Origin: Geosiphon pyriformis uo1 | Taxonomy: Eukaryota > Fungi > Glomeromycota | Assembly (NCBI GenBank): GCA_016748015.1 | Contig: JAAOMT010000648.1 | Span: forward strand, 1-64,000 | Length of the DNA: 64,000 nt | Direction: 5' to 3' | Part shown: piece after piece, positions 17,971 to 49,991 of the stretch | Layout: the number at the start of each line of letters is the position of its first letter | Position numbering within the stretch: the stretch's first letter is position 1 | Translations under genes and position numbers: made by a program | Notes under the pieces: model-generated | Told to the model about the DNA's origin: nothing | The model's input: the letters and a program-made list of their open reading frames with translations, nothing else | Databases searched by the model: none

Positions 17971-18942
17971 TGTTACCAGAGGTTTTTGGTCTCTTTTCTT
18001 GAATGTTGTAACTGTCTGTTGGTTGCAAATTCACATTTTTTAGAAGTAGTTGAATCTCCAATAACTGAATTTATCTTCAAATTATCTTCTATAATTTGAA
18101 CTGCTGGACTTATAAATGAAATGGCCAATTTTGTACCAGTTACTTTGTGTAGTTACATTGTAGTAAATGTCAACTCTTTTCCAGGAATTGCTTGTCTGGA
18201 AGCTTACTAAAAATGTGTAGTTACTTTGCTGTGAAAGTCAACTCTTTTACAGGAATCTCATCTGTAGACTACCCTAATGATTGTAATAAAAAATAAAAAT
18301 AAAAATAAAAGAAATGTAAAAGAAATAAGATTTTATCAAGGGAAACGTTTTCTATCCAGGCCTGGAGTCACTAACAGTTTACTGAAATTGGTAGCTAATC
18401 AATTTCAAAACGTTAGTTGGGTTTTGGGGATTTTCCAAGTGCAATAATTAAAGAATTTGGTTTTTTCAAATTTATTTGATATTTATTTCTTTTTGTGTGT
18501 GTAGGAATGGTTCTAAGTGATAAATCTAAAGTAAGATACATTTTCTTGAAGAGAAAAGCTCTTCTTTTATACAACTTGTTATAGTACTAGTCTATGAACT
18601 TGCACTTTTTTTCTTTGCTCAAATTTCGGCAAACTAAAGATACATTTTGATAGACTACAAGTTATTTCGCTGAACTATTGATTAATTTGGGTGAACTATT
18701 CATAATTTCGGTGAATTTTTATAAATTTCGGTGAATTTTTGAATGTTATAAAGTTTAGGGTATTGTGTAATTTGATCATCTTACTTTTTGTTATACTAAT
18801 TGGATTATTTAATTAAATCGTGATATGTGATAATTGATTAAATAATAAATAATAATTTGAAATGATATTAATATACTAATTAATTATAGGAATTATAAGG
18901 ATAATTTCATGCTAATTAATAGCTAAAATTCTACTGGTAACA
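17971..18942 (-). repeat. 3' LTR of A
   Basis: Direct repeat of 26855-27826; PPT GAAGAGGAG adjacent at 18947-18955. Confidence 0.95.
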
Positions 18943-19624
18943 TAATCTCCTCTTCAAGACTGAGCTCCATTAAAGTCCAAGCACTATCTGTGATATTGAA
19001 ATAGTGATCCAAAATAATTGAAGTAATCTGGTCTGAAAATTGTTGAAATTTCAGTTCTGTAAGTTTGCCAATAAATTGGACTTTCATTGGTTACAATATT
19101 GAATTTTGTAAAACATTTTCACAAGTATTAAACAAATCATAGAGTCTAAAAGCTGCTCTAAGTTTGTAGTGAGTGTTTGTTAGTCCAGCTGCTGTTTTGA
19201 ATTCATTATGAATTTGTTTTTGTATAGCTTCAAGAGTGAGATTTGTTGTTTCAAGTTCCAGTTTTCGTTTATAAAGTGTCTTTCCAATGTGAAAGTATTT
19301 ATAAATAGGGGTGTGTTCATTGTTCTGTTCATTGAGAAGTAGTAGAAGTTTTTGTTGCATTGTAGTATTTAGTAGAATGTTGGCAATTAAAAGATTTTCT
19401 TCCAGTGCTTGCTTCAAAAGTCTTGGTAACCTATTTTCAGAGTGATTTCTTGTTTTTCTTTTATAGGGATGATAGTTCTGTAAACAATTTACTACTGGGA
19501 CTGTGGTTTCTTTCTGAATGTAATTAATTTGACTTCCATTAATCATTATGGATAAGTCAGGAAGTGTTTTTAAGACTAACATTAACTTTTGGAATATTTG
19601 TTGAATATTTCGGAGAATAATCAT
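18923..19624 (-). pseudogene. A ORF3 (env-position accessory ORF, 233 aa, one internal TAA)
   Basis: Homologous to C ORF3; ends ELSLEEEIMLPVEF* inside the LTR. Confidence 0.75.
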
Positions 19625-19748
19625 GATAAAATTGATTAATTATGAAAAGAGAGAATAAAGAAAATTATTTTTGGATATGGGGTTTTTATTTGTTTTTGGG
19701 TTTGGGGGTTTTTGTAATTTATTTACTATTTTTGTCTTTGTGTTTTTA

Positions 19749-21185: not shown

Positions 21186-24100
21186 TTAATATTGTCTCAT
21201 CTTTGAGAGACTGTCAATATTAGTGTGTATTTTTCCTGGTTTGTAGTGTACAATATATTTGTAGTCTGCTAAGAAGTCATTCCATTGAGACTGTTTGGCA
21301 CTTTGTTCAGTTTTCTTTTTATTGAGCCATTTGAGACCAATATTGTCAGTTATTATGTTAAATTCTTTTCCATTTTTCAGATATTGTTGAAAATGTTTAA
21401 GAGCCCAAATAATTGTAGCAGCTTCTAATTTAGTTAAGCCATATTTGAGTTCTGTTGACTTGAGTGTTCTACTGACATAGACGATAACTTGTCCTGACCA
21501 TTTTTATCCAATTGTGATAAGATGGCACCAAATGCTATGTGTAAAGCATCAGTGGCTAATTGAAATTGTTTGTTGAAGTCTGGATAAGCAAAAACTGGGG
21601 CTGTTGTCAATTTTGTTTTGAGAGTTTCAAAAACTTTTTGTTGTTCTTCAGTCCATTTGTATAGTATGTTTTTGTTGGTAAGATAATTGAGTGATTTGAC
21701 AATTTCTGAGAATTCTTTTATAAATTTTTAATAGTAAAAGACTAATCTTACAAATTCTCATAGTTCTGTGGTATTTCTGGGAGTTTGAAAGTTTTTGATA
21801 GCACTGATTGTTCTAGGATTTGGTTTGACTCCATCTTTGCTAACAATGTGTTTGAGGAAGATTAAGCTTGTTTTTTCAAAGTAATATTTTTCAATGTTTA
21901 ACTTTAATCTTGCTTTCTGTAATTGTTAAAAAACTTCTCACAGGTGAATAAGGTGGGCTTCAAAGCTTGGTAAGTATACATTAGTGTCATCAAGATAGAC
22001 AACTACTGATTGCCACAAGAGCCCTTCATATACAACATTCATGAGTTGCTAAAATGTTGCTGGTGTATTACAGAGTCCAAAAGGCATAACATTGAATTCA
22101 TAGTTTCCTTCTTAGATAGTAAATGTTGTTTTGGGTCAGTCTTTTGGGTTCATTTTGACTTGCCAGTATCCACTTTTCAAGTCCAAAGTTGAGAAGAACT
22201 TGGCTTTTCCTAAAGCATCTAACATGTTATCAATTCTTGAAAAAGGGTAGACATCTCCAATTATCACACTGTTTAATTGGTGATAGTCAACACAAAATTT
22301 GATTTTTCCATTTTTCTTTTTGACAAGGACTACTGGTGAGGCCCAAAGACTTCTTGATGGTTGAATCAATCCATTATTAAGCATTCTCTGGACTTCTTCT
22401 CTGATGAATTGGTAACTGGCAGGTGGCACTCTGTAAGCTTGCTGACGTTTTGGTGGAGCATCTTCTGTATAGATCTGATGTTGAACAATATCCGTTTTTC
22501 CCAGATCATTGTTGTTTTTTGCAAATATATCTGCAAATTCAGCTATCAATTGTTTTAATTGTCTTTGTTGTTGAGATTCTAAGAGACCCATGTTGATATG
22601 AGAGAGTTTTTCTTTCAAAAAATGGTAGTTTTTAATGGTGGGAATAATATTTAGATTTGGGAGTAGAGTGTGCCTTACAATTTCGATAAAATTAGAGACA
22701 ATTTGAGGGTTTTCATCTTGAAAAATATTGTTGTGTATGATTCCAATCTCTAATTTGTTTAATAAGACAATAGGGTAATTATTGGAGTTGTAGAATGTAA
22801 CTCGAAATTTTTTCATTCCTTTGGGAATATAAACGTTTAGAATTAAAATTTTATGCTTCAAACAGATTTGTTCATTGGATTCAAAGATTTGTTGGATAGT
22901 AGTGGGTTTTGAGCAAGTGTAAATTTCGTGATGTTCTTCAAAAGGTGAAATGGTAATTGGTTGGAGAAGTTGAAGAATCTGGTAAGATTCATTTTGTATT
23001 TTAAGAGCTATGTTTACTAGAACTGTAAATTGTCCAATTGAACCAAAACCTTGAATTCCTCTTTCACTTTTTCCCAATTTTTCTCTGTTGTTTACTGATT
23101 GTAGACCCGAAATATTGATTAAGGGTAGGTAAATTGCTTGAGCAATTTTTTCAGCATGTTCAATCTTGAATGGTTTGTCTGTTTCATTCTGCAACATGAT
23201 AGTAATGTCTCTAGTGTATCCTGCATCTATAACTTCTCCTCTAATATTGATTCTTTTGCTTGCCAATGATGATCTGGAGGCAATTTGAACTATTGCTCTA
23301 GGTAGAATTTCAAGAGCAATTTTGAGATTGATTTTTGTCAAAGACTTTGGTTGAAGAACCAAAATATCTTTTCCTGGGTATCTTAGGTCATATTCGACAT
23401 CAATTTCGTGTGCTTTTTCTGGTCTGATTCCTTGGCCATGGTTGTCAAAATATTTAAGTTGTAGAGGTGATTGCTTTTCAAGGAGATAGATGGAGGTGGT
23501 TGGTAGTTCTTCTATTAGTTTGAATACTCCAAATTCGATTTTATTTTCATCATTCTCTTTTGGCAGGGGAATGCTAAGAGCATAGCATTCTAAACACCAT
23601 TGGTTATCACAAAACATGATGCATTCTTCACATAATTGAATGTTTATTTGCTCTAATCATTGAATTTGAGCTTCTTTGGTCAGATATGTGTGGCTTGCAA
23701 TTTGGTGATATGTTTCTGCTTTATCTTTATAATCAAATCCAGCTAATTCTATAGTATACTCAATATATTTAGCTTCTTTCATTTGACAAACATCTTTTTA
23801 AGTGGCTTCATTGATCAATATCATTGCTAGGTCAAAAATCATTTTAGTATTATGAGGGTAGTGGTAAAGTTTATTGAAAGCTTTGTTGTATGCTGCATTA
23901 AATGGTGTTCCTCTTCTGACTTTTTCCAAAATTGATAGAGCATATTGACAGATTTGATTACATACTCCTCCTCTCATTGCAACATCAATCCAGTTGCATT
24001 CTTTTGGTAACATATTTCCACATGTAAGACAAGATGTGTTGTCTCATTTTCCACTTCTTTTTGGAGATCCAAATCATTTTCTATGGCATACTTTGCAAAA

Positions 24101-26809
24101 GTAACAGGTACAAGTTTCATATTTCTCTTCTGAAGAAATACATGCTCTCATTGATGAAAGTTTCTTGTTGCAATCTTTGCATTTGAGTGAAATATAGAGT
24201 TGTTGTTTCCATGGTTCTAGTGTAGAATATCTAACTTTCTTCCATCTTCTTGATTCTTCAAAAATCTCCTGTTCTGTTTCTTCAGCCCAATTGGATGTTA
24301 ATCCAAGAGCCATGTAGATTTCAGTAACTGGCATTTCTTTTTCCTCTTTAAATTCAAATACTAGGGCTTTTTCTGATCATTTGTTAAAAGTACTACAAGT
24401 AGCAGGTACTATGGTGTATTGTTCTTGGTATGAGATTTTTAATTCCTAAGTTTCCCAGTCTAAGTTTGCATTGGCCTTAAGAAGCCAATTATTTCCGACC
24501 AAAGCTTGGTATTGGGATGTATCCATGACTAGAACTTTGACTGAAATGGTAATTCCATCAATAGTAAATGGAAAATTGTCAATTTCTTCTACTGGTGTCT
24601 TTTTTATACCAGTTGCTGTAACAATTACAGTTTGGGCTGGTCTGTTAACAGTTTTTTGAAGCTGCTGCATTAACTGGTAAGTGATAATACTTCCAGCTGA
24701 TCTACTGTCTAGAATTAATTGGATGGGTTTTTCTTCTACTGTAGTTTTAGTATACATAGCAGTGATAGCTTTTTGTTCATTAGCTGCTGCATTACTAAGC
24801 AAGAATGGTGATTCATTTGCTTCAAATTCGAATGAGAATATATCTAAAAGGTTGGCATTTTGGGCAATTTGAGCTGATGGAATAGTGTTGTTGGAAGAGT
24901 TTGATCTGGGTGCTGCAACTTCATTTTCAGAAAGTGCAAGTTGTTGAAAATCCGATTCCTCTGGTATTGTAAGATAACTGGATTGAGTGTGATAGTAATT
25001 GGGTCTTTGCTAACCAAAATTTTGGAGAACCAACTGGTTATTTGGATTAATTCTGTTGTTGTTATTCTGAAATTGATTTTGGGATGTGAATTGGTTATGT
25101 TGAACCAATCTTCTTGCTGGTACTTGATATTGTTGAGTAGATGGTGTCTGATATTGCTGAATTGGTAAAGGTTGCTGATATTGTTGTTGAATTGGTTGTG
25201 GAGCTGGTTGATAATAGCTGTTTTAAATTTGTGGTCTTGGTGAATAATAAGTTGGTGGTGGAAGTTAGTAATAATATTGTTGTGATGAAGAATAACATTA
25301 ATTACTTCTGTTTTGTTGGTCTCTTTGTAGTTTCCTACAATCTCATTTCCAGTGTCCTGGAATTTCACAATAGTGACAATTTTAAGGTTGGTTGTTGGAT
25401 GGTGGTCCAAAGTTGTTTTGATTGCGTCATTGTGGGGGTTGGTATTTTTGTGGTTGTTGTTGCTATTGTTGTTAATTTGTGAAGTAGCTTTCAACCTTCT
25501 TTGTGAGTTGGTTTATCTTTTCTTCAGCTGCTAAACTGGTTTCTTCAATAGCTAGATTGACGAGTTTGGTATGGTTTGCTTCTTTTATAGCTATTTCATA
25601 GTTCTTTGCATGTCTGATAACAGTTGCTAAGTCTGTTGGAGCATGTGAATGGACTTTCTTAATCAGTTTGTCTTTTAACCTTGCTATAAACTGGTCTAGA
25701 ATTTGAGCATCAAAATAATAATTATTGGTTTCCAATTGTCAAATCTGTCAAAAAAGTTTGTTGAATCTTCCAAGATAAGTCATGACAGTTTCAGATGTTT
25801 CTTGTTTGATATTGTGAAAGTGATTGTGGAAAGTAATAGAGGTGTTGTTGTTAGTAAATTATTGTAAGAAAACATCTTTAAATGCTTGTCAGTTTTCAAA
25901 TGATTCTTTTAAGTTTTCAAACCATTCTTCTGCAGTTCCTTGAAGAAAATATGGGATTGCTTTGAGCATTCTTGCTGCATTCCAACCATTTGCATCTCCT
26001 GCTTTTTGAACTTTGTCAAGCCATTCTTAAGAACTGGTATCATTATCTTCACCTGTGAATTCTGGAATCTTTGCAATATAAGCAGTTACTATTTCTTCTT
26101 CATTTTCTGTGGCTTCTTCTGATTCTGGTTCAGTTTTTTCACTTTCCAAGCTTTTTAAATGATTACTTTCGTTTTCTTGTAAGTAATCAATGATATTAGC
26201 ACTTGTTGATATTGGTTTCTGTTGTTGAGTAGGATTTCTAGGTGACTGAAAATCTTCTGGTCTGGAAAAATGGTTAGGTAATGAACTTAGTGTTTGTAGT
26301 TAAACAAGTGAAATTGAAAATAGTGTAATAAAAAGTGGTAATTTGACACTGGTTTCTTGTTCAGGTGTTTGCAAGTGTTTGGCAGTTGTTTTTGGTAGTA
26401 TTGGAGTGTTTGGAGTGGTTCTTGAGTATTGTTTCACTTTTTGTTTGTTTTTGTTGCTTGTCTCTGTTTCTGATTCAAAGTTAAAAGAATATTTGGGCTG
26501 TACTGGGTATTTTTCTTTACAGTACTCAATAATATTAAAATTAAGTTTTTAGAAGTAGATAGCAAATGTTTCACTGTTCAGGTCTTCTGTTCCCAATTGT
26601 AAATAGTGCACTAAATTATTGTAGAGGTTGCTTCTAACTTCTGAAATGTTGTAGTTTCCAAAAAGATAATTGTTGATGCAATTTTCAATATATTGGTATA
26701 CTGATTTCTTGATAACTTCAATTCCGTCTGGGATGTTAAATCTTTGCTTGCAGTGGGTGTAAATTGACTAATGATACTCTAGAGTTGTTGTGTCTGGTGT
26801 AGTTGCTAC
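21186..26809 (-). pseudogene. A ORF1: extended Gag, PR, Cys-rich domain, dUTPase, RT, RNase H
   Basis: CHYC..GHW..DC knuckle, LILDSRSAGS, RSSLA/VIDAGY/IAQAI/RGIQGFGS, LDLKSGYWQ, YLDD. Confidence 0.9.
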
Positions 26810-29420: not shown

Positions 29421-30221
29421 TGTTACTCATAGAAAAAGCATACAAAAAAATAGTAGGAAAAACAGATAAACCAATAAAAAAATAGTAGCTAACATATAAG
29501 CATATTGCTTAACAATGTGAAGCAAAGTCAAAAAATTATGACACATTGTTCAGCAATATAAACATTGCTTGAGAAATTATAATACATTATTCAGAAATGT
29601 AAGCAATCTCATAGAACCCAAATTATGTATATATAGCAAGAGCATTAAAAGCAGAAAAAACAGAATTAATACCAAGATCTCTCTATTAAAACATCTTAGT
29701 TAGAATTATCAATAACAATAAATAATTATTTATCATATAAATTACTCTTTCCACTATTAACACTTCATGTTGATAGTATTCAATACTTAATCACATTGGA
29801 ACAATAGCTCTTAATCATGGCTATTGATGAGATACTAACTTTTTTGCCTTGGCTTATTGTCTTTATTTCTTTTTTTTATTTTATTTTATTTTCTTTTGCT
29901 GTTGATTTACTAATTGATTAAAAAATTAATGTGCAGAGTATTGATATTAGAATATAATACTGGTAAAAAACCCAGAAATAAAAATAGACATTCATAATTA
30001 AGAATAGCTTACTAGAAGATTGCCAGCCACCATGCTAAGAAAAAAATTGATAGAATTGTAATTTCAGGAAGTAATAGATAACAACAAACAACTATTGAAT
30101 CTCTGTCTATTATACAAAAAATTCCACCAAAACCTTCAGATATTACCAACTATTTTAGTGATTAAGTACCAAGTTATGAGTTTGTTATTTGATTTGAGAC
30201 CCCAAATAATTATCTGTAATA
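29421..30221 (+). repeat. 5' LTR of B
   Basis: Aligns to 49253-49991 with an extra ~58-bp internal unit. Confidence 0.88.
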
Positions 30222-33200: not shown

Positions 33201-36200
33201 GAATAGCTTACCAGAAGGGTTACTGGCCACCATGCTGAGAAAGAAATTTGATGGAATTGAAATTCTGAAAAGCTATAGAAAAAAACTACTACTTAAATCT
33301 CTGTCTATTATACAAAGAACTTAACTAAAATTTTCAGACAACCAAAACCTTCAGATCACTATAATCTTCAGATATTACCATTATATCAGTTATTAAGTAC
33401 CAAATTACAGATTTGTTATTTGATTTAAGACTCCAAATAATTATCTGTAATACTGTTCTTAAATTAAAACCAATCATTACAATATATACAGATACCAAAG
33501 TTGATGATCAGTTTATTAAACTGATTTTAGACAGTGAATCAGCTGGCAGCATCATTACATGATAACTTATAGATCAATTAGGTTGTCAAATTAATTACAC
33601 TGCTAGTGCCAAAATTATTACTGTTGATAAAATAACAAAAATGCTTATTAATAAGATTAATGATTTCCCATTTGAAGTTAATAGAATTATCATACCAATT
33701 AAAGTCTTTGTAATAAATGCTACCTAATATTAAGCTTTCATTGGCAATAATTGGTTAACAAAAACAAATACTATATTTGATTGGACTACACAAAAACTCC
33801 AGTTCAATTAAGACAGCAAGCATATACAAATACCAGCTACTTGTGACCACTTTAAACCAACTGTCACACAACCACTTATAGAATTTAAAAAAAAGAAAAA
33901 AAACCTATCTGAAAAGCCTACCAAGTCTTATGGGCTGACACTGACCACAACAATCTATTACCAGTATTTACATGGAAAGAAAAAAGAAAAGAGAAAAAGA
34001 AAGAAGAAGAAAAAACCCAAGCAACTATCTTTATATATATTCTATACACCACTATCACTCAAATCCAGCCAAACTATTATTGATCCAAGCTAATTTGCAT
34101 CAATTGTAACAAGAAATTGTTAACAATAGGTGCATGTTGTGGCAATAATAAAGAATAACCAATGGCCACAAAATACTACTGCCACCCATGTATCCTTGAA
34201 TGTTTTAGATAACCAAAATAACAAGACAAATAGGACTATAAGTATTGTCTTGTGTGTAAAACAATTCTTCTTGACAAAAGAATATAGAACAATATTCCTG
34301 GACAAGAAAAAACCTGTGATAAGACATGTTAATACACAATTTTGATCAACAATTAGATACAAAAAAAGACTCCAATCAACAATGCCTAGAAATAAGCACT
34401 ATAATACCTAAAAGGATACTCACACAACAAACATGAGATTTGGAGAATGGCAAGTGCTAAAGTTGAAGGTACTACTCCCAGTAAACTACTGAAAATTAAG
34501 AATAATCCATTTACATTACCTAAACCAGAGTACATTCTTACTTTTAACATCTTTGATAATATTAAAGATGATCCAAAAGAATTCTATGAACATTATCAAA
34601 ACCTAGTATTTATATGAGAGGAGTAAGAACAGCATTTAGAAAAACTAAATACTTGATTATATAATCATTGTTTAATTTCATGTAACTTCTAGTATTGTGA
34701 TAATTATGACTTTATTTACAATTTACTACCATGAATAATCTATTTAATTTCCAAAGAAGAAAAGCCAATCAGCAAGTATACAATGGAATTGAAACCAAAA
34801 TTCAATTTTGATTCAAACTCTAACAATGATAACAATGATAACAGTTTCAGCTTTGTTTAATATGACAATAACAACAGTGAAAATTTAAATTCTGATTTAA
34901 ATCTAGAATAATATATTGTGCTCCCTAATTTTTCAAAGGAGCAAGAACTTAAATGGTTCAGCAATAATAATAAAGGTATTATGCCAAAATGTGTGCATGA
35001 TACTAATGCTAAATTTGATCTGAGATATCTAAAAAAAGATGTTATTAAATTGAAACCACATTCACACACATGTATTAATCTAAAAATAGCATTGGAAATT
35101 CCAGCAACAACAATGATTCAATTAGCTTCTAGATTTAGTTTAGTAAAGAAAAAGATAAATATAAGAGGAGGAATAATTAATGCAGAATATGTAGGAAATA
35201 TTATTGCAATACTACAAAATAACTCAGAAAAGGCTTATATAATCAAGTCAAATGAAAAAATAGCACAGGCAATATTTCTACCTCTGGTTAAAGTAGCTTA
35301 ATTAGTATTAATAAGAAAAAAAGAAGAATTAGAGATAATAGCAAGAGGAATAAGTGGATTTAGATTTACAGGTAGAATAGATGTACCAGTTAATATGGCA
35401 AAAGAAAAAGTTATTGACATGAGAGAAATTATTTCCACCCATCAATTAATTTCTATTCTGTCATATAACCAGTACATGTTAGCCATAGAAAAAAAAGTAA
35501 AAAATCAAGCTCAAATTTTCAAAGTAGAAGCTACCAATTATGAATCAAGAAAAATTGGAATTACCAATCTTTACATACCAGCCAAAAGCCCTAAACACAT
35601 CAAAATTTCTATCTACAATACAATGGAAAAGATTATTGAAATACCAAGTAGAACTATCATTAGATACTTAAGCACTGAAATTGAAAACCAACTACCAAGC
35701 ACTATTTCAGATTTTTCACAACTTTGCAGATATGTGGATATTATATTACAAACAATATACAAATAAAAAAATACTATTTGCTTCAATCAGAACAATTAGA
35801 ACAAATGAACTTGGAAAACTTAGACCCACTCCAACAGATGCAGCTCAAGATGTTGCTTAACAATTTTACTGATATTTTTGCCAGTGAAAATGAATTTAGC
35901 AGAACCAACATTATCTAACATTAAATCAAGACTAGAGATGTGATGCCAATCAAACAACAAGTATACCAAGTGCTACCAGCCAGCCATAAAATCATTTAAC
36001 AAGAAATTAACAGAATGTTAGACAATAGATTAATTCAATTATCAATAAGTTTATGGTCATCACCAGTAATACCAGTCCATAAAAAAAAATCCGTTTTTGT
36101 GTGGATTATAGAAAACTCAATAGTGTAACTTATGGAGACAGCTACTCCACTCCACAAATCCAAAAATTATTTGATGCTTTTGGAAGAAAAAAATGATTCT

Positions 36201-38569: not shown

Positions 38570-39127
38570 TCAATCAAAAGAGTATATAAAAACATGATAT
38601 ACATGACAAAAGAACCAAAAAAAATGAAAATATCAGATCATATCCACATTTTAGCTTAACAATTATTTTAGGCCTTAAATTAACAATAATTGAACATAAA
38701 AATCATCATCAACTGCTAAATAATTTGCTATCAAAACACTAAACAAAAAGAAAAAATACATTATATCAGCAATCACAGAACCAACCAAAAAACTGGTCAA
38801 ATAAAATAGTAAAAAAAGTAAAGAACACTTTTGGAAAAATATCCATTATAGTTTTAACAGAAAAACTTTCAAAAACAGTAGATAGAACAACTTTCAACAT
38901 CATACTACTACTATCAGTTGGAACAAAAGTTGAATATTTAGAAGTTATATCTCAATAAAGCCAAAAGAATATTCAACCAAGAGATAATACAGAATATTGA
39001 AGATATTATTAGAAAGACAACAAATTTGACATTACATATTAGAACAATCTATTAATTACACACAATATTTCAAAACTATCTAGAAATATTGCTACACCCT
39101 GACATAAAAACAATAACTATTAACCAG

Positions 39128-40100
39128 TGTTACTAGACAAAATTAGAGATATTGTTTAGCATGAAATTACCCTTATAAATCTTATCATTAGTTAGCATAT
39201 ATTATCGTTTCAAATTATCACTTATTACATTAGCAAAATATATCCGAAATTATCATTTAATTAATAACCCAATTTGTACATAACACAAATGTATCCTAAT
39301 TGCAATGATCAATCATGCAATACCCTGAACTATGTAACATTCAAAAAGTTTGCCGAAATTTGTAGAAATTCGCCAAAATAATTGATAGTTCACCAAAATA
39401 TCTAATAGTTTGCAGAAATAATTTGTAGTTTGCCGAAATGTATTTTTAGTTCAGCGAAATTGTAGAAAATAGCAAAGTTTGAGTTTATAAAATAGTGTTA
39501 CAACAAGTTGTATAAAAAAAAAGTGTCTCTCTTCGAAAAAATGTATCTTACTTCAGATTTAAACAATTAGAATAATCTTTTACACCCAAAAGACAAATAA
39601 ATATCAAATAATTCAAAAAACCAAATTCTTAAATTATTTCCTTTGAAATTAACCAATTCCTACTAACAGTTTGAAATTGACTAGCTACCAATTTCAGTAA
39701 ACTGTTAAAGCACTTCCAGGTCTGGATAGAAAACGTTTTCCTTGATAAAATCCTATTTCTTTTATTTTTCTTTTATTTTCTTATTACAATCATTAGGGTA
39801 GCCTACAGATGAGATTCCTGTAGAAGAGTTGACTTTTACAGCAAAGTAACTACACATTTTTAGTAAGCTTCCAGACAAGCAATTCCTGGGAAAGAGTTGA
39901 CATTTACTACAATGTAACTACATAAAGTAACTGGCAAGGAATTGGCCATTCCACTTATAAGCCCAGCAGTTCAAATTATAAGAGATAATTTGAAGATAAA
40001 TTCAGTTATCGAAGGTTCAAACACTTCCCATAATTGTGAATTAACAGCATTACAACAAACATACAAGAGCTAAGAAGAGACCAAAAAACCTCTGGTAACA
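39128..40100 (+). repeat. 5' LTR of C (973 bp)
   Basis: TGTTACTAG..CTGGTAACA; repeat of 48363-49114. Confidence 0.95.
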
Positions 40101-40119: not shown

Positions 40120-40145
40120 AATAACACAGCAACAACAAATTCAAA

Positions 40146-43100
40146 GTGGCGACCACACCAGACACAGCAACTCTAAAGTATTACCAGTCAATTTACACAC
40201 ACTGCAAGCAAAGATTCAACATTCCAGATGGAATTGAAGTTGTCAAAAAATCAGTCTACCAATATATTGAAAACTGCATCAACAATTATCTTTTTGGAAA
40301 CTACAACATTTCAGAAGTTAGAAGCAACCTCTACAATAATTTAGCACACTATTCACAACCAGGAACAGAAGACCTGAACAGTAAAATACTTGCTACCTAC
40401 TTCCAAGAACTTAATTTTAACATTATTGAATATTGTGAAGAAAAATACCCAGTACAGTCTAAATACTCTTTTGACTTTGAATCAGAGACAGAAACAAGCA
40501 ACAAAGGCAAACAAAAATTGAAGCAATACTCAAAAACCATTCCAAATACTCCAATACTACCAAAAACAACTGCCAAACACTTACAAACACCTAAACAAGG
40601 AACTAGTTCAAAACTTCTACTTACTATCACACCTTTTCCAGCTTTACTTGCACAAGCACAAACATCTAATTCACCCTTAAATTGATTTACAAGACTAGAA
40701 GATTTTACATCACCCAGAAGTCCCACCAGACAACAAGAACCCCTTCAAACTAGTTCCAATCTCCTTGACTTTCTAGCTGAAAATCGAAGTGAACACTTTG
40801 AGACAGCAGTGAACGAAGAAAATGACTCTGAAATATCTGAAGAAGAATCAATAGACAGTGAAAATGAAGAAGACGAAATGACAGCATATATTGCAAAAAT
40901 CTTTGAATTCAATAGAGAAGACATTAAGACCAGTCCCCAAAAATGGCTCAACCAAGTTACTAAAGCTGGAGATGCAAATGGATGGAATGCTGCCAGAATG
41001 TTAAGAACAATTTCCTACTTTCTCAAAAGAACAGCAGGTGAATGGTTCGAAAACTTGACCACTCCTTTTAATGACTGGACAGCTTTCAAAACTGTCTTCT
41101 TAGAACAATTTACCGATAACAACACCTCAATCACTCTTCGAAATTGTTTTCACAATATCAAACAAGAACCCTCCGAATCTGTTATGACTTATATTGGGAA
41201 ATTCAACAAACTTCTCAGACAAATTTGCCAACTTAAAACTAATGATTATTATTCTGATGCTCAAATCTTGGATCAATTTATTGCTGGTTTAAAGAATAAG
41301 CTGATTAAAAAGGTTTGCCCACATGCCCCAGAAGATTTAAACTCTGCCATTTAGCATGCAAAGAGATATGAAATGGCCATGAAAGAAGCCAATCGTACAA
41401 AACTCGTGAACTTAGCCATTGGAGAAACCAGCTCAGCAGCTGAAAAAAAAATTGACCAACTTGCAAAGAAAGTCAAAAACTATTTCACCAACCAACAACA
41501 ACAGCAACCCCAAAGATATCAACCATCCCAAAGACGGAATCAAAACAACTTCACATTACCCTCTAATAACCAGTCTCAGAGTTGCCATTACTATGGAATT
41601 TTTGGCCACTGGAAAAAAGATTGCAGAAAGCTACAACAAAACCAACAAAATAGGAGTAATCAACATTACCTTCCACCACAGCAATCTTATTATCAACTGC
41701 CACCACTAGCTTATCATCCACCAAGACCCCAATATCAAAGTAACTATTATTAGCCTGCCCCACAGCCAATTCAATAGCAATACCAACAACCACCCACACA
41801 ACATTATCAGGTGCCTGTTTGAAGATTAATTCTGCAAAATCAATTTACACCACAAAACCGATACCAAGTAAACAACAATAGAATCAATTCAAACAACCAA
41901 TTGGTTTTTCGAAATCCAGCTCAGCCAAGACCCACCCATTATCATACTCAACCTAGCTATCTTACAATATCTGAAGAACAAGATTTTTACCATACTGCAC
42001 TCTCGGAAGGTAAAGCTGCAGCATGACAACAAAGCTCTTTCTATACTCCTACCACAATCCCATTAGCCAGAATTGCTGAAAATGCCAACCTTTCAGACAT
42101 ATTCTTTTTCAAATTTGAAGCAAATGAATCACTATTCTTGCTTAGCAATGCAGCGGCTAATGAACAAAAAGCAATCATGGCTATGTACACTGAAGCAGAA
42201 GTTGAAGAAAAGACAATTCGCTTGATCCTAGACAATAGATTTGCTGGAAGCATTATCACCTACCAGTTAATGCAACAGTTAAAGAGAAATGTCGACCAAC
42301 CAGCTCAAACAGTAATTGTTACTGCCGATGGCATGAAAAAGACTCCAGTAAGAGAAATTGACAATTTTCTGTTCATTCTTGATGGAATCATCATTCTAGT
42401 CAAAGTTCTTGTAATGGACACACTCCAGTATCAAGCCCTTGTCGAAAATAATTGGCTCCAAAAAGCCAATGCAAAATTAGACTGGGAAACCCAAGAATTA
42501 CAACTCTCCTATCAAGGACAACATACCCGAGTACCCACTACTTGTGGTACATTCAACAAATGCTCTGAAAAAGCCCCAGCTTTTGAATTCGAACCAAAAG
42601 AAGAAAAACCAATAATCAAAACATTCATGGCTCTTGGATCAATGTCCAATTGGGCTGACAAAACTGAACAAGAACATTTTACACCATACTCTAAACCCGA
42701 AACCTCTGGATGAAATATCCCTTACTCAAAGTCTGAACCAAAAAAACAACGCCCTTACATTCCCCTTAAATGTAAGGACTGCCACAAGAAACTATCATCA
42801 ATGGGAGTCTGCATTTCACCTGAAAAAGAATATAAAAATCATACTTGTTACTACTACAAGGCTTGCCACAGAGAACAATGGGGCCATCTAATAAAAAGAA
42901 GTGGAAAATGGGACAACACTCCTTGTTTAACTTGTGGAGATATACTACTAGAAAAATACAATTAGATTGATGTAGCAATGAGAGAAGGAGTCTGTGATCA
43001 AATCTGCCAATATGCTTTATTAATTTCAGAAAAAGTCAAAGGAGGAACACCCTTTGATGCAGCATACAAAAGTGTTCTCAACAAACTGTACCATTACCCT

Positions 43101-46100
43101 CATGATGCTGAAATAATTTTTGACCTAGCAATGGCTTTAATCAACAGAGGCACTTAAGAAAATGTTCATTAAATGAAAGAATCAGAATACATTGCATACA
43201 CTTTTGAAATCACTGGATACAACTATGAAAATAAAATAGAAGTATATCACCAAATTGCCAGTCACACTTACCCGACCAAAGAAGCTCAAACTCAATGGCT
43301 AGAGCAAATGAATGTTAAATTGTGTGAAGAATGCATAATGCCCTGCGATGAGTAATGGTGCCCTGAATGCTATGCTCTTAGCATTCCCCTGCCCAGTAAA
43401 AACAATGAAAACAAAATTGAATTTGAAGAACTTGAAGCAACAGAAGAAATTGAAACAACACCCATCTATCTTATCAAAAGTCAGCCTGTCTTACAACTCA
43501 AATACTTTAACAACAACGGACAAGAAATAAAACCCGAAAAAGCACATGAAATTGATGCTGGATATGACCTAAGATATCTAGACAAGGATATTCTTGTTCT
43601 TAAACCCAAATCTCTCACAAAAATTAACCTCAAAATTGCACTCAAAATCCTGCCAGAAGCAATGGTTCAAATCACTTTCCGGTCCTCTCTGGCAAGCAAA
43701 AGAATCAATGTCAGAAGAGGAATAATCAATGCTAGATATACAGAAGATATTACAGTGATGTTTCAAAATGAAACTGACAAACCATTCAAAATCAAATATG
43801 CTGAAAAAATTGCCCAAGCTATTTACCTACTCCTAATCAACATTTCGGGTTTGCAACTAGTCAATCAAAGAGAACAATTAGGAAAAAGCGATAGAGGAAC
43901 CCAAGATTTTGGTTCAACTGAATGATTCACAGTTCCAGTTAATATAGCTTTTAACACACAGAACAAATCTCACCAGATTCTCAGACTTCCACAATCAATT
44001 ACCATCTCACCCTTTGAAGAACATCCGGAAATCTACACCTGCCCAAAGCCAACAACCACACAACAAATTTTCAAGTCCAATGAACAAGTCTGCTTGAAAC
44101 ATAATATTTTGATCCTAAACATTTATATTCCAGAAAGAACAAAGAAAGTCTGAGTTACTTTTTACAATCCCAACAATTATCCCATAGTTCTATTAAATAA
44201 CTTAGAAATTGGAGTCATTCACAGTAACATCTTTCAACAAGAACTACCCCAAACAGTCCCCAATTTTTCGGAAATCATTGGACATTCACTACCAAAAATC
44301 AACCCAAACCCTAGCTCTGAAAACTATCATGTTGTTATGGAAAAATTATCTCGAATCAACATGGGACAACTTGAACCACAACAACAGAGCCAGCTCAAAG
44401 AGCTAATTGCAGAATTTGCTAATATCTTTGCTGAAAACAACAATGACTTAGGAAGAACCAATTTGGTCCAACACCAAATTTATACAGGAGATGCCAAACC
44501 AAGAAGACAACAAGCATATTGAGTTGCTCCAGAAAGCCACCAATTCATTCAAAAAGAAGTACAACAAATGCTTAACAACGGGTTCATCCAACCCTCCATG
44601 AGTCTTTGGGCTTTACTTGTAGTGCTAGTTAAAAAGAAAAATAGAAAGATACGATTTTGTGTTGACTACCGACAACTCAATAGTGTTACAATTGGAGATG
44701 CCTACCTCCTTCCCTGAATTGATGACATGTTAGATGCCCTTGGAAAATCCAAATACTTTTCAACACTAGATTTAGAAAGCGGTTACTGACAAGTTGCTAT
44801 GGATCCCAAAGATCGCCCCAAAACAGCATTCACCACCCAAGGTGGAAATTACAAGTTCAATGTAATGCCTTTCAGATTATGCAATGCACCAGCAACGTTT
44901 CAGAGATTAATGAATATTGTGTACTAAGGACTTCTTTGAAAGTCAGTAGTCGTTTATCTTGATGATACTGATGTTTATTCTCTATCATTTGAATTACACT
45001 TAAAACACCTGTGAGAAGTTTTTCAATGATTACAAAAAGCAGGACTAAAACTCAACATCAAAAAATGCTACTTTGAAAAAACAAGCTTGGCCTTCCTTGG
45101 TCATATTGTTAATAAAGATGGAATCAAACCAGACCCTGGAAAAATCAGTGCTGTCAAAAACTTCAAAACTCCTCGAAACACTACAGAACTAAGAGGATTC
45201 ATAGGATTAGCCTCCTACTATCGGAAGTTTATTAAAAGATTCTCAGAAATCACAAAACCTCTCAACCAGCTTACCACCAAAAACATCAAATATGAATGGA
45301 CTGCTGAATGCCAAAATGTATTTGAAATCCTCAAAGAAAAACTAATGACAGCTCCAATTCTTGCCTATTCAGATTTCAGTAACTGATTCTGATTAGCAAC
45401 AGATGCCTCTTATACTGCCTTTGGTGCTATTCTATCACAATTGGATGACAATGGAAATAAACGAGTAATCGCCTATGCAAGCAGAACATTAAAACTAGCT
45501 GAGAAAAATTATCCTGCCACAGAACTAGAAACAGCAGCCATAATCTGGGCCCTACACCACTTCAACTTTTATCTCAGANNNNNNNNNNNNNNNNNNNNTA
45601 TTAAAAGATTCTCAGAAATCACAAAACCTCTCAACCAGCTTACCACCAAAAACATCAAATATGAATGGACTGCTGAATGCCAAAATGTATTTGAAATCCT
45701 CAAAGAAAAACTAATGACAGCTCCAATTCTTGCCTATTCAGATTTCAGTAACTGATTCTGATTAGCAACAGATGCCTCTTATACTGCCTTTGGTGCTATT
45801 CTATCACAATTGGATGACAATGGAAATAAACGAGTAATCGCCTATGCAAGCAGAACATTAAAACTAGCTGAGAAAAATTATCCTGCCACAGAACTAGAAA
45901 CAGCAGCCATAATCTGGGCCCTACACCACTTCAACTTTTATCTCAGACCTAAAAAATTCGATATTATTACTGATAATATTGGACTCAAATGGCTTCAGAA
46001 CAAAAATACTCAGCTGAACGCAAAACAAACCCAATGAACAGGATTTCTAGCAAACTATCGATACATAGTACATCACAAACCACAAAAACTCTACACCAAT

Positions 46101-46133
46101 GTTGACTGTCTCTCCAGAATGAGACAAGATTAG
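40146..46133 (+). pseudogene. C ORF1: extended Gag, PR, Cys-rich domain, dUTPase, RT, RNase H in one frame
   Basis: All ORF-track fragments from 40146 to 45810 share one frame, broken only by point nonsense codons; DAGYDL, RSSLA, IAQAI, RGTQDFGST; VVYLDD; ATDAS..ELE. Confidence 0.92.
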
Positions 46134-46184
46134 AAAACACAAAAACCAACACTCAACTTAACCAACCAAAACAGCCAACAAACA

Positions 46185-47564
46185 ATGAATTCGGAAAACT
46201 ACAACAATCTCAAACAATATTTGGAAACATTAACAATCTCAACAGATTGGTCTCCAGATGAAAAACATCAATTACAACAACAAGCCAAACAATATTTTCT
46301 ACATAACAACATTATTTATCATCGAAATTTCAAAAACCCAGACAAACCACTCAGATTAATACAAGAACAGGAAAAAGAGACTATATTATACAACATGCAC
46401 TCAGATCCTTCATCAGCACACTTTGGAAAAGACAGCACCACCCAAAGAACACTAAAATACTACTTTTGGCCTCGAATGAGAAAAGACATTCATGAATATG
46501 TCGAATTTTGTGATAGTTGTCAAAGAAGAGGAGAAAAACACTCTACTAAACCATTAAATCCAATCAAAGTTGGACAACCCTTCAACTGAATTGGTATTGA
46601 TTTAGTCGAACCACTATCTATTACCACTCAAGGAAACTGTTATATTGCAGTAGCTGTAGACTATCTTACTAAATGGCCCGAAGCCAGAGCCATTCAACAA
46701 GCAGATGTGAAATCAGTAGCAAATTTCATCTATAAAAACATCATTTGTAAACATGGATGTCCAATTAAACTTTTATCCGATCAGGGAACACACTTTGTGA
46801 ACAACCTGATACAAGAAATTTGTGAATGATTCAATGTCAAAAGACCTTTGTCTTTGCCTTACCATCCACAAACAAATAGACTTGTGAAACATTTTAACAG
46901 AACATTGTGTGAGTCATTAGCCAAAGTCTCAACCAATTTTGAGCAAAAGTGGGATATCTTTATTCCATCAGTATTACTAGCATATAAAACACTAAAACAA
47001 GATACCACAAAACACACATTATTTGATTTAACTTATAGAAGGACATTACCAATTAGTTTTACAGTGAAAACATACTCAGCACAACCAATTAATAAAAACA
47101 ATTTTCAGGAAACACTACAATGAAGAGCCTATACTCTGCTTAGCACATTGGAAGAAAAATGACGAATAGCAGCAACTCATATTGAACATTCTCAAGCTCA
47201 ACAAAAAGAAAAACATGACAACAAATTACCACCTATTACCAACGAATTTAAAGTTGGAAATAAAGTTCTCTTACACAGAACTAAAGCTGAAAAACAATGG
47301 AGTGGAAAATTTGAAAATAAATGAGATGGACCATTCTTTATCCATGAAATTCTAGGCAACGGATCATACAAGCTAAGACTTGATGACAAAATCCTAGCAA
47401 AAGTTGCACATGGAAATTGTTTGAAACACTATAATTCCAGAAACAATCCTGAACCATTAATTCCACAAATTGGCACACATTCCTCTTTAATCAATCCCGA
47501 AGATATTCCCCAGAATTTAAAACCAATAGTTGTCATTAAACAACCTCCCAACTTGAACACTTAA
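46185..47564 (+). pseudogene. C integrase ORF with its own ATG, 459 aa, no chromodomain
   Basis: H..AHFG..CDSCQ, GIDLV, SDQG, YHPQTN, DGPF. Confidence 0.9.
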
Positions 47565-47686: not shown

Positions 47687-48394
47687 ATGACTATTCCTCA
47701 AAACATTTAACAATTAGTCCAAAAACTAATGTTAGCTTTAAAAACAATACCTGAATTATCTATTACTATTACTAGAAACCACATTAATTATACCCAAACA
47801 GAAGTAGTCACAAATTCACGAAAATATCACCCATATAAGAAGAACACAAGAAGTTATTCTGAAATTCACCTGCCAGAACTTTTAAAGCTTGCTTTAAGAG
47901 AAAACTTAATGCTCACTCCTATTAGTATTCCACCAAATACTACTATTCAACAAAAACTTCAACTGTGTATTAATGAAGAAAACTATGACTATACTCCAAT
48001 ATATAGATATTTCTACATTGGAAAAACACTTCATGAATGAAAACGAGAGCTTACAGCAGCAAACCTCACAAAAGAAGCTATTCAGAAACAACTCCACAAT
48101 GAATTCAAGACAACAGCTGGACCTACAAACAGTCATTATAAACTAAGAGCTGTTCTTAGACTTTATGACTTATTCCACACCTGTGAAAACGTCCTACAAA
48201 ACCCAATTTTACAGCCTTTGAAGATTCAATATATTGGAAAGCTTACAGAACTGAAATTTCAACAATTTTCAAACCAAATTTCTTCAATAATTTTGGATTA
48301 TTATCTGGAAATTACAGACAGTACTTGGACTTTGATGGAGCTCAGTCTTGAGGAGGAGGTTATGTTACCAGACGAAATTAGAGATATTGTTTAG
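47687..48394 (+). pseudogene. C ORF3 (env-position accessory ORF, 235 codons, two nonsense mutations)
   Basis: ATG 47687, same frame through to ELSLEEEVMLPDEIRDIV* inside the 3' LTR; homologous to A ORF3. Confidence 0.78.
48350..48359 (+). promoter_or_regulatory. Polypurine tract of C
   Basis: GAGGAGGAGG three nt before the 3' LTR. Confidence 0.8.
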
Positions 48395-49114
48395 CATGAA
48401 ATTACCCTTATAAATCTTATCATTAGTTAGCATATATTATCGTTTCAAATTATCACTTATTACATTAGCAAAATATATCCAAAATTATCATTTAATTAAT
48501 AACCCAATTTGTACATAACACAAATGTATCCTAATTGCAATGATCAATCATGCAATACCCTGAACTATGTAACATTCAAAAAGTTTGCCAAAATTTGTAG
48601 AAATTTGCCGAAATAATTGATNNNNNNNNNNNNNNNNNNNNNNNNNNNNNNNNNNNNNATTCCTACTAACAGTTTGAAATTGACTAGCTACCAATTTCAG
48701 TAAACTGTTAAAGCACTTCCAGGCCTGAATAGAAAACGTTTTCCTTGATAAAATCCTATTTCTTTTATATTTCTTTTATTTTTCTTTTATTTTCTTATTA
48801 CAATTATTAGGATAGCCTACAGACGAGATTCCTGTAGAAGAGTTGATTTTCACAGCAAAGTAACTACACATTTTTAGTAAGCTTCCAGACAAGCAATTCT
48901 TGGGAAAGAGTTGACGTTTACTACAATGTAACTACATAAAGTAACTGGCAAAGAATTGGCCATTCCACTTATAAGTCCAGCAGTTCAAATTATAGGAGAT
49001 AATTTGAAAATAAATTCAGTTATCAGAGGTTTAAACACTTCTCATAATCGTGAATTAACAGCATTACAACAAACATACAAGAGCTAAGAAGAGACCAAAA
49101 AACCTCCAGTAACA
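48363..49114 (+). repeat. 3' LTR of C (contains assembly gap 48622-48658)
   Basis: Repeat of 39128-40100. Confidence 0.92.
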
Positions 49115-49252
49115 CCAGTGAGGAAAAATAAACAACTTGCAAATTAAAAATATAAGAAACAGAGTTGAACAAACAATATTAGAAAAAAAAGTCATAGATC
49201 TAATTTAAAATGAAAATTTCAATAAAGCTCAATATTAAAAAAAAGAAGATAA

Positions 49253-49991
49253 TATTACTTATAGAAAAAGTATACAAGAAAATAGTAGAAAAAACAGATA
49301 GACCAATAAGATAATAGTAGCTAATATGTGAGCACATTGCTTGAGAAATTATAGCACATTGTTCAGGAATGTGAACAATCTCATAGAACCCAAATTAAGT
49401 ATATATAACAAGAGCATTAGAAGCAGAAAAGACAGAATTGATACCAAGATCTCCTTATTAAAACATCTTAGTTAGAATCATCAATATCAATAAATAATTA
49501 TTCATTATATAAATTACTCTCTTCACTATTAACACTTCATGTTAATAGTATCCAATACTTGATTACACTGAAACAATAATTCTTGATCATGGCTATTGAT
49601 GAGATACTAACTTTTTTGCCTTGGCTTATTGTTTTTATTTTTTATTTTTTTATTTTTTTATTTTTTTTGTTGTTAATTTACTAATTGATTAAAAAATTAA
49701 TGCACAGAGTATTGACATCAGAATATAGTACTGATAAAAGACTCAGGAATAAGAGTAGACACTCATAATTGAAGATAGCTTACCAAGAGATTGCTGGCCA
49801 CCATGCCAAGAAAAAAATTGATGGAATTGTAATTCTAGAAAATAATGAATAACAACAAACAACTATTGAATCTCTGTCTATTATATAAAGAACTCCACCA
49901 AAATTTTCAGATATTACCAACTATTTTAGTGATTAAGCACCAAGTTACAGATGTATTATTTGATTTGAGACTTCAAATATTATCTGTAACA
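49253..49991 (+). repeat. 3' LTR of B
   Basis: TATTAC..TGTAACA; aligns with 29421-30221; decayed purine tract upstream. Confidence 0.88.

Follow-up and report, generated by a model that had tools for sequence, protein, structure and literature searches.

In a 64-kb window of Geosiphon pyriformis DNA (positions 1 to 64,000 of contig JAAOMT010000648.1, assembly GCA_016748015.1; "the window" always means this whole stretch), three decayed Ty3/Gypsy retrotransposon copies, C (plus strand), A (minus strand) and B (plus strand), each carry a Cys-rich domain in Pol. Our tentative reading of this domain is that of a lineage-specific Gypsy Pol accessory domain with three predicted zinc ions, which might act as a docking module that holds the dUTPase in the reverse-transcription complex. 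The strength of this reading is a compromise between two parts: that a real zinc-type Pol domain is present is highly probable, and the docking mechanism is possible but doubtful. The domain family is previously undescribed, while the type of element, a long terminal repeat (LTR) retrotransposon whose dUTPase adjoins an extra domain, is already known.

A Cys-rich domain between protease and dUTPase

The window was scanned in all six frames with a profile of the domain, and exactly three copies were found:

42765..43379, plus strand, Cys-rich accessory domain of copy C; profile match 321 bits; four in-frame stops; one zinc-ligand Cys lost
23576..24187, minus strand, Cys-rich domain of copy A; all twelve core Cys retained; four in-frame stops
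34087..34710, plus strand, Cys-rich domain of copy B; heavily decayed; profile match 174 bits, E 8e-55

Copy B had been left out of the profile, so that its match is independent. The stops in the domain of copy C lie at 42963, 43155, 43170 and 43353, and a Cys that is conserved in the family reads Tyr at 42855. The Cys motifs listed in the original prediction were all located in one plus-strand frame (translation of 42738-43460), namely CKDC (42771/42780), a single C (42810), C..YKAC (42846/42864), CLTC (42924/42933), CDQIC (42993/43005), the helical YPHD segment and CEECIMPCDE-stop-WCPEC (43323-43368). The prediction had furthermore placed a domain of about 230 amino acids between the protease (PR) and the dUTPase. 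Its existence and position are borne out, but its length is about 205 residues, the rest being linker. The order in the frame of copy C is gag, retropepsin, Cys-rich domain, dUTPase, a conserved region termed X, reverse transcriptase (RT), RNase H and integrase. As had also been proposed, the Cys spacing is kept in the other two copies: all 14 Cys of copy C are common to copy A, and 11 of 13 aligned Cys are common to copy B, the domains of C and B being 26% identical at non-Cys positions.

The Cys pattern of the domain is more than chance. Cys makes up 14 of 211 residues (6.6%) in copy C and 18 of 209 (8.6%) in copy A, compared to 8 of 973 (0.8%) and 4 of 749 (0.5%), respectively, in the flanking PR-RT sequence. 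CxxC occurs four times in copy C and six times in copy A. When the residues of each domain were shuffled, on average 0.9 and 1.5 CxxC were obtained, and the observed count was attained in 77 of 10,000 shuffles for copy C and in 14 of 10,000 for copy A.

The domain family and its distribution

When 1.84 billion representative proteins were searched by HMMER with the domain of copy A, 199 matched at E<=1e-3; of these, 106 had E<=1e-10 and 50 had E<=1e-30. With a profile from a trimmed alignment (A3), 80 longer proteins were found, 79 from G. pyriformis and one termed P0037, together with 136 shorter ones; among the matches listed for the latter (120), 119 are from G. pyriformis and one is P0077. 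Exact-sequence look-up of 27 proteins assigned 23 to G. pyriformis and one (P0142) to Ambispora gerdemannii, and the remaining three (P0037, P0077 and P0091) come from assembled contigs. A word-based search with the P0037 domain returned P0037 alone, and a scan of Joint Genome Institute (JGI) metagenomes with the same domain gave 44 matching pattern stretches, none of which was confirmed. By these sequence matches the domain family so far appears confined to Archaeosporales. Striking LTR expansions are described for Geosiphonaceae and Ambisporaceae in the part of PMC11952901 covered here, and the copy number of the domain in G. pyriformis fits them.

P0037 has an uninterrupted frame of 1,064 residues that comprises PR, the Cys-rich domain, dUTPase and the start of RT. 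PR lies upstream of the domain in 76 of the 79 proteins with at least 180 upstream residues, and a dUTPase follows within 200 residues in 48 of the 50 with at least 150 downstream residues; as all of these proteins were retrieved via the domain, the counts describe a constant order and not an independent association.

Conservation and selection

For column-wise conservation, 421 segments from 325 proteins were aligned to the profile, with 97 to 226 segments per Cys column. Twelve columns, arranged in six pairs, contain 84-97% Cys, and three further Cys columns are variable. At every core Cys column the main replacement is Tyr, which is what decay of TGY codons by G-to-A changes would produce. 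The 57 longest segments form four groups, with 33-41% identity between groups. All four share the same majority residue at 49 of 205 columns, and 12 of these 49 are the paired Cys. The common signature begins with L-x-C-x2-C-x-KKLS-x-M ... YC-x2-C ... GKW-x4-CL-x-CG and continues with W-x-D-x4-GG-x-CD-x2-C-x-Y ... TP-x2-AA ... LC-x2-C-x2-P-x5-C-x2-C. Twelve Cys in six pairs, conserved to this degree and with the same majority residue in four subfamilies, speak for the multi-zinc module that had been suggested.

Ratios of non-synonymous to synonymous substitution (dN/dS) between copies A and C were calculated by the Nei-Gojobori method and are rough values:

Whole domain, 0.27
Fingers 1 and 2, 0.20
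Helical core, 0.41
Knuckle 3, 0.14
PR, 0.17
dUTPase, 0.13

Decay of A and C after insertion can only raise these ratios. Region by region, P0037 is identical to copies A and C to the following extent:

Cys-rich domain, 38-41%
Linkers, 21-35%
PR, 59-62%
dUTPase, 54-60%
RT, 70-71%

By these comparisons the domain was under purifying selection. Thus, the dN/dS ratios together with the regional identity to P0037 argue that it was a working, constrained part of Pol.

Predicted zinc sites and structure

The ligand pattern and the models described below predict three C4 zinc sites, with two fingers of the knuckle-plus-helix type, a terminal C4 knuckle and an acidic helical core in between. The parts are located in copy C as follows:

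42771..42866, plus strand, predicted zinc finger 1, basic; CxxC at 42771/42780, then (C>Y at 42855)xxC at 42864
42924..43007, plus strand, predicted zinc finger 2; GKWD..CLxCG, then WxD..GGxCDxxCQY
43008..43322, plus strand, acidic helical core with six helices predicted by AlphaFold2, TPxxAA and YPHD; isoelectric point (pI) 4.4-5.1
43323..43370, plus strand, predicted zinc knuckle 3; LCxxCxxPCxxQxCxxC
43380..43532, plus strand, acidic linker between domain and dUTPase, poorly conserved (23-26% identity to P0037); pI 4.05

In the alignment, the columns of finger 1 (4, 7, 32 and 35) contain 84-92% Cys, those of finger 2 (54, 57, 77 and 81) 90-97% and those of knuckle 3 (187, 190, 199 and 202) 91-96%. 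Column 194 has 57% Cys and 30% Ser.

The whole P0037 domain was modelled twice by AlphaFold2, from 40 and 82 aligned rows, which gave models with a mean predicted local distance difference test (pLDDT) of 75 and 74 and predicted template modelling (pTM) scores of 0.55 and 0.51. Both have the same secondary structure, with values above 90 in the core. Finger 1 is modelled with short strands at the first CxxC and with the second CxxC at the start of a helix (43-50); the third and fourth pairs in finger 2 are arranged in the same way, with pLDDT above 90 in model 1. The helices of the core are predicted at 91-104, 109-120, 124-138, 143-163, 168/171-181 and 185-195. The C-terminal Cys cluster is poorly modelled (pLDDT 45-56). 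The pI of the domain is 4.6 in P0037 and 5.5 in P0004, and only finger 1 (pI 7.8-8.6) and the linker that precedes it are basic.

Search for known relatives

The domain is without a detectable relative in sequence, and models of the whole domain gave no significant match in fold. For its three copies in the window, no Pfam family was matched at E<=1. With the threshold raised to E<=10, the domains of P0037, P0004, P0142 and P0077 gave nothing credible (E 0.26-4.9, with 7-12 bits against cut-offs of 25-27), in agreement with the claim that the domain lies outside canonical Gypsy Pol. Against PDB, a search by sequence returned only 1weo_A, a RING, at E 1.6, and one by profile only dUTPases, matched by the flank, with nothing in the domain. 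The ESM Atlas gave no usable match. Foldseek returned no match at E<=1e-3 for both whole-domain models against PDB, where the best rows were LIM, GATA and PHD-like (E 0.1-0.7), and none at E<=1e-3 against BFVD, where weak HNH and RING rows appeared. The check by AlphaFold and Foldseek that had been proposed thus gave no significant match, and Cys conservation held across the copies. In the full-text literature, no description of such a module was found.

Tandem fingers of the LIM, GATA and PHD-like types resemble the models in having two successive CxxC...CxxC sites, each predicted with a knuckle and the start of a helix. They differ from the domain in its spacing (CX2C-X24-CX2C, about 20 residues, CX2C-X19-CX3C) and in its ligands, which are all Cys with no His or Asp. 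Their Foldseek rows have E-values of 0.1-2, and Pfam gave no match. LIM domains have two contiguous fingers, two residues apart, with His and a final Cys, His or Asp among the ligands. A LIM assignment was rejected, the fingers of the domain being about 20 residues apart and all-Cys, with no Pfam LIM match at E<=10; the Foldseek rows (E 0.2-2) are not significant. RING and PHD domains form a cross-braced site of eight ligands including His (C3HC4 or C4HC3). The ligand columns of the domain contain no conserved His, there is no Pfam match, the Foldseek rows have E 0.1-2, and the AlphaFold2 models suggest sequential rather than interleaved zinc sites. An HNH or His-Me nuclease was rejected as well, since neither a His nor an Asn at or close to the hairpin is conserved throughout the four subfamilies. 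The CCHC zinc knuckle (CX2CX4HX4C) is absent from the domain, the only one being that in gag (41583-41624). This Gag knuckle and the integrase HHCC motif are zinc-binding parts of the same copy C polyprotein; the domain differs from both in ligand pattern, position and size and is additional to them.

A possible docking module for the dUTPase

For the docking mechanism, which by analogy we consider possible but open to considerable doubt, three steps are envisaged. The domain would enter the virus-like particle as part of Gag-Pol, would stay fused to, or associate with, the trimeric dUTPase, and would anchor the latter to a protein partner (RT, integrase or Gag) or, via the basic finger 1, to nucleic acid. 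Docking is favoured because the constant position in front of an acidic linker and the dUTPase recalls two known systems. One is the homotrimeric fusion of nucleocapsid protein (NC) and dUTPase of Mason-Pfizer monkey virus (MPMV), in which, according to the part of PMC1802613 covered here, a zinc module is likewise connected by a flexible linker to the N-terminus of a trimeric dUTPase in a retroelement polyprotein. The other is Juno of bdelloid rotifers, where the covered part of PMC5408684 describes a dUTPase between PR and RT that is followed by an extra zinc knuckle, so that here too a zinc module adjoins a dUTPase of the PR-RT interval. Juno has one small knuckle after the dUTPase and animal hosts, whereas the Geosiphon element has a large three-site domain before the dUTPase and a glomeromycotan host. 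As the domain is acidic, docking would probably occur via protein contacts, with the basic finger 1 as a possible contact to nucleic acid.

Several points weigh against this reading. Betaretroviral NC is a small, basic nucleic-acid chaperone with CCHC knuckles that is encoded before PR. The Geosiphon domain, in contrast, has about 205 residues, all-Cys ligands, a mostly acidic composition and a helical core, is encoded after PR and has no sequence similarity to MPMV NC. It is unrelated to the knuckles of both NC and Juno, so that the analogy is one of position only, and it is several times larger than either. For most of the domain an NC-like function as a nucleic-acid tether is unlikely because the domain is acidic, with only finger 1 and the linker before it being basic. 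The protease may cut the domain away from the dUTPase. The zinc sites are predicted from the ligand pattern and AlphaFold2 secondary structure, with low confidence (pLDDT 45-76) for the C-terminal knuckle and for parts of finger 1. The dN/dS ratios are rough, as they come from decayed, AT-rich copies with synonymous sites near saturation. Finally, dUTPase-bearing Gypsy elements of other fungi, i.e. PosPlaTy3-3, -4 and -5 of Postia placenta together with elements from Phanerochaete and Tuber, are not reported with such a module in the covered part of PMC2864245, and a dUTPase may therefore do without the domain. These elements resemble copy C in being Ty3/Gypsy with a dUTPase, which in PosPlaTy3-5 lies in the PR-RT interval; they differ from it in that no Cys-rich module is mentioned in that part of the paper. 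These elements are furthermore chromoviruses, in contrast to copy C with its integrase lacking a chromodomain.

A wider form of the docking reading is more speculative still. The domain would be a new, self-contained three-zinc fold that Gypsy elements of the Archaeosporales, mycorrhizal fungi of an early-diverging lineage, acquired as a dedicated partner of their dUTPase, and, together with betaretroviral NC-dUTPase and Juno, it would point to a convergent rule by which a dUTPase is joined to a zinc module.

Other explanations

Small zinc-holding helical accessory proteins are known from lentiviruses. By comparison with these, a zinc-stabilised acidic helical domain in the particle could bind a host restriction or silencing protein and act as an adaptor against host defence, the equivalent of the anti-silencing factor in the original prediction; we consider this improbable. 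The absence of a conserved enzymatic motif, with no His among the 49 columns shared by the four subfamilies, and the acidic surface would fit such an adaptor. The same holds for the faster evolution of the helical part, with a dN/dS of 0.41 compared to 0.14-0.20 in the zinc parts, but 0.41 is still purifying and gives no sign of an arms race. Restriction of the domain to a lineage whose genomes show large LTR expansions (covered part of PMC11952901) is likewise compatible with an adaptor. However, no relative of the domain is known, and an adaptor leaves its fixed position beside the dUTPase unexplained.

Somewhat less probable is a function in integration targeting, as a chromatin or DNA reader that replaces the missing integrase chromodomain, the first of the functions that had been suggested. 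The integrase was correctly predicted to be without a chromodomain, H2C2, rve and a weak SH3 being all that was detected in copy C. The chromatin reader itself found no support, the only hints being non-significant PHD-like and GATA Foldseek rows (E 0.1-0.7). All matches lie below the noise of the tools (typical best Z of unmatched models, 7-8), the domain is acidic, unlike a general binder of nucleic acid or chromatin, and its ligand set lacks His, unlike that of PHD fingers. It is also separated from the downstream integrase by about 1,000 residues, which include PR-processed domains. The related idea of a tether for a free integrase found no support either; in copy C the integrase is in frame with RT and RNase H and not split off.

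The chance is slimmer again that the domain is a scaffold for processing or assembly, i.e. a structured spacer after PR that controls PR dimerisation or the order of cleavage, for which the PR-RT junction region of yeast Ty3 is the closest comparison. Such a spacer would agree with the position directly after PR in 76 of 79 testable proteins and with poorly conserved flanking linkers, which could hold cleavage sites. On the other hand, a spacer needs neither three zinc sites nor some 50 conserved positions, and such conservation is characteristic of folded interaction domains.

A zinc-finger nuclease of the HNH or His-Me type (T4 endonuclease VII-like) is very improbable and contradicted by the lack of a conserved His: weak rows for T4 endonuclease VII (Foldseek E 1.6-1.7, 46-55 columns) and for phage HNH endonucleases in BFVD (E 0.07-0.7) are all non-significant, the surroundings of the CLxCG...GGxCDxxC hairpin hold no conserved His or Asn, and the His of YPHD is Glu in the P0037 group. 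That the domain is a functionless, tolerated insertion or chance Cys-rich spacer would suit three dead copies in the window but is just as hard to believe, being contradicted by the selection data (dN/dS 0.27), by Cys pairs kept across subfamilies at most 41% identical and in a second genus, and by the intact open frame of P0037.

The host element and its surroundings

Copy C, about 10 kb long, is a Ty3/Gypsy insertion that is complete but dead. It has a pair of LTRs with TG..CA ends and a target-site duplication, CCAG, at 39124-39127 and 49115-49118. A single plus-strand frame, unbroken but for stops, spans Gag through integrase (40125-47564), and its Pfam matches follow the Ty3/Gypsy order gag-PR-RT-RNase H-integrase. 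Besides the Cys-rich domain and its linker, the element comprises:

39128..40100, plus strand, 5' LTR; 93-98% identity to the 3' LTR by blastn; TG..CA ends; flanking CCAG
41013..41624, plus strand, Gag (Retrotrans_gag) with CCHC knuckle (41583-41624); PF03732, E 2.9e-12; CHYYGIFGHWKKDC
42130..42560, plus strand, retropepsin-type PR; from the translation, PR families being matched in the relatives P0037 and P0077
43533..43919, plus strand, dUTPase domain inside Pol, between PR and RT; PF00692, E 6.9e-16
43926..44627, plus strand, region X, conserved and unannotated, between dUTPase and RT; equivalent in copy A at 22457-23056, minus strand, about 200 residues
44628..47432, plus strand, RT, RNase H and integrase (H2C2, rve, SH3) in one frame, by Pfam; stops and an assembly gap with a 369-bp duplication inside
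48363..49114, plus strand, 3' LTR; contains an N run (48622-48658)

Gag and Pol of copy C share the frame, with no frameshift between them. The active-site region of PR reads LILDNRFAGS at 42222, decayed from the LILDSGSAGS of P0037. With a family profile, the dUTPase matched PDB entries labelled 'DUTPase' (5nyz, 5cco, 3zez and others) at E 4e-5 to 1e-4, which we take to be enzymes of staphylococcal phages, and, with poorer E-values of 0.006-1.5, entries for deoxyuridine 5'-triphosphate nucleotidohydrolase (3p48, 3f4f and others). All five dUTPase motifs look intact in P0037. The integrase H2C2 domain (PF17921) lies at 46362-46529, and the SH3 match is weak.

Region X has the lowest dN/dS of all, 0.07 between copies A and C, which is the strongest constraint measured in this analysis. 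Its 200 residues in copy A gave no credible match in Pfam or among PDB sequences, the best rows being one in PDB at E 0.17 and Spuma_A9PTase, which at E 0.012 stays below its cut-off. A further open reading frame 3' of the integrase (ORF3) runs from 47711 to 48394 on the plus strand into the 3' LTR. It is conserved between A and C (copy A, 19091-19639, minus strand) and has no Pfam match at E<=1.

Two N runs interrupt copy C, at 45579-45598 and at 48622-48658. An exact duplication of 300 nt flanks the former (45230-45529 equals 45599-45898, spacing 369); the duplication is probably an artefact of assembly and makes the RNase H region longer.

Copy A lies on the minus strand with LTRs near 17971 and 26855. 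Copy B, on the plus strand, is far more decayed than A and C. Repeats at 29562-30161 and 49334-49932, 85-90% identical, bracket copies B and C. From these repeats and the CCAG duplication around copy C, the latter looks like a nested insertion in the 3' part of copy B. Decay of the copies appears transition-dominated, with in-frame TAA, TAG and TGA stops (e.g. at 42711, 42963, 43155, 43170 and 43353) and the change from Cys to Tyr; cytosine deamination or a process like repeat-induced point mutation (RIP) would fit. The window is AT-rich eukaryotic DNA in which ARAGORN found no tRNA gene, and the best protein matches of its elements are hypothetical proteins of G. pyriformis.

Conclusions

LTR retrotransposons rarely carry fixed extra domains, and every such domain indicates a part of the replication cycle for which the element needed a solution. 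The domain described here is large and conserved, has no named family or matched fold, and has reached hundreds of copies by amplification in an LTR-inflated fungal lineage. If it is a partner of the dUTPase, it joins the betaretroviral and rotifer cases and suggests that this enzyme generally has to be tethered. Otherwise it is still an unclaimed, predicted zinc-binding fold that is worth adding to domain databases, and such an entry would make several hundred 'hypothetical proteins' of Geosiphon recognisable as transposon fragments.

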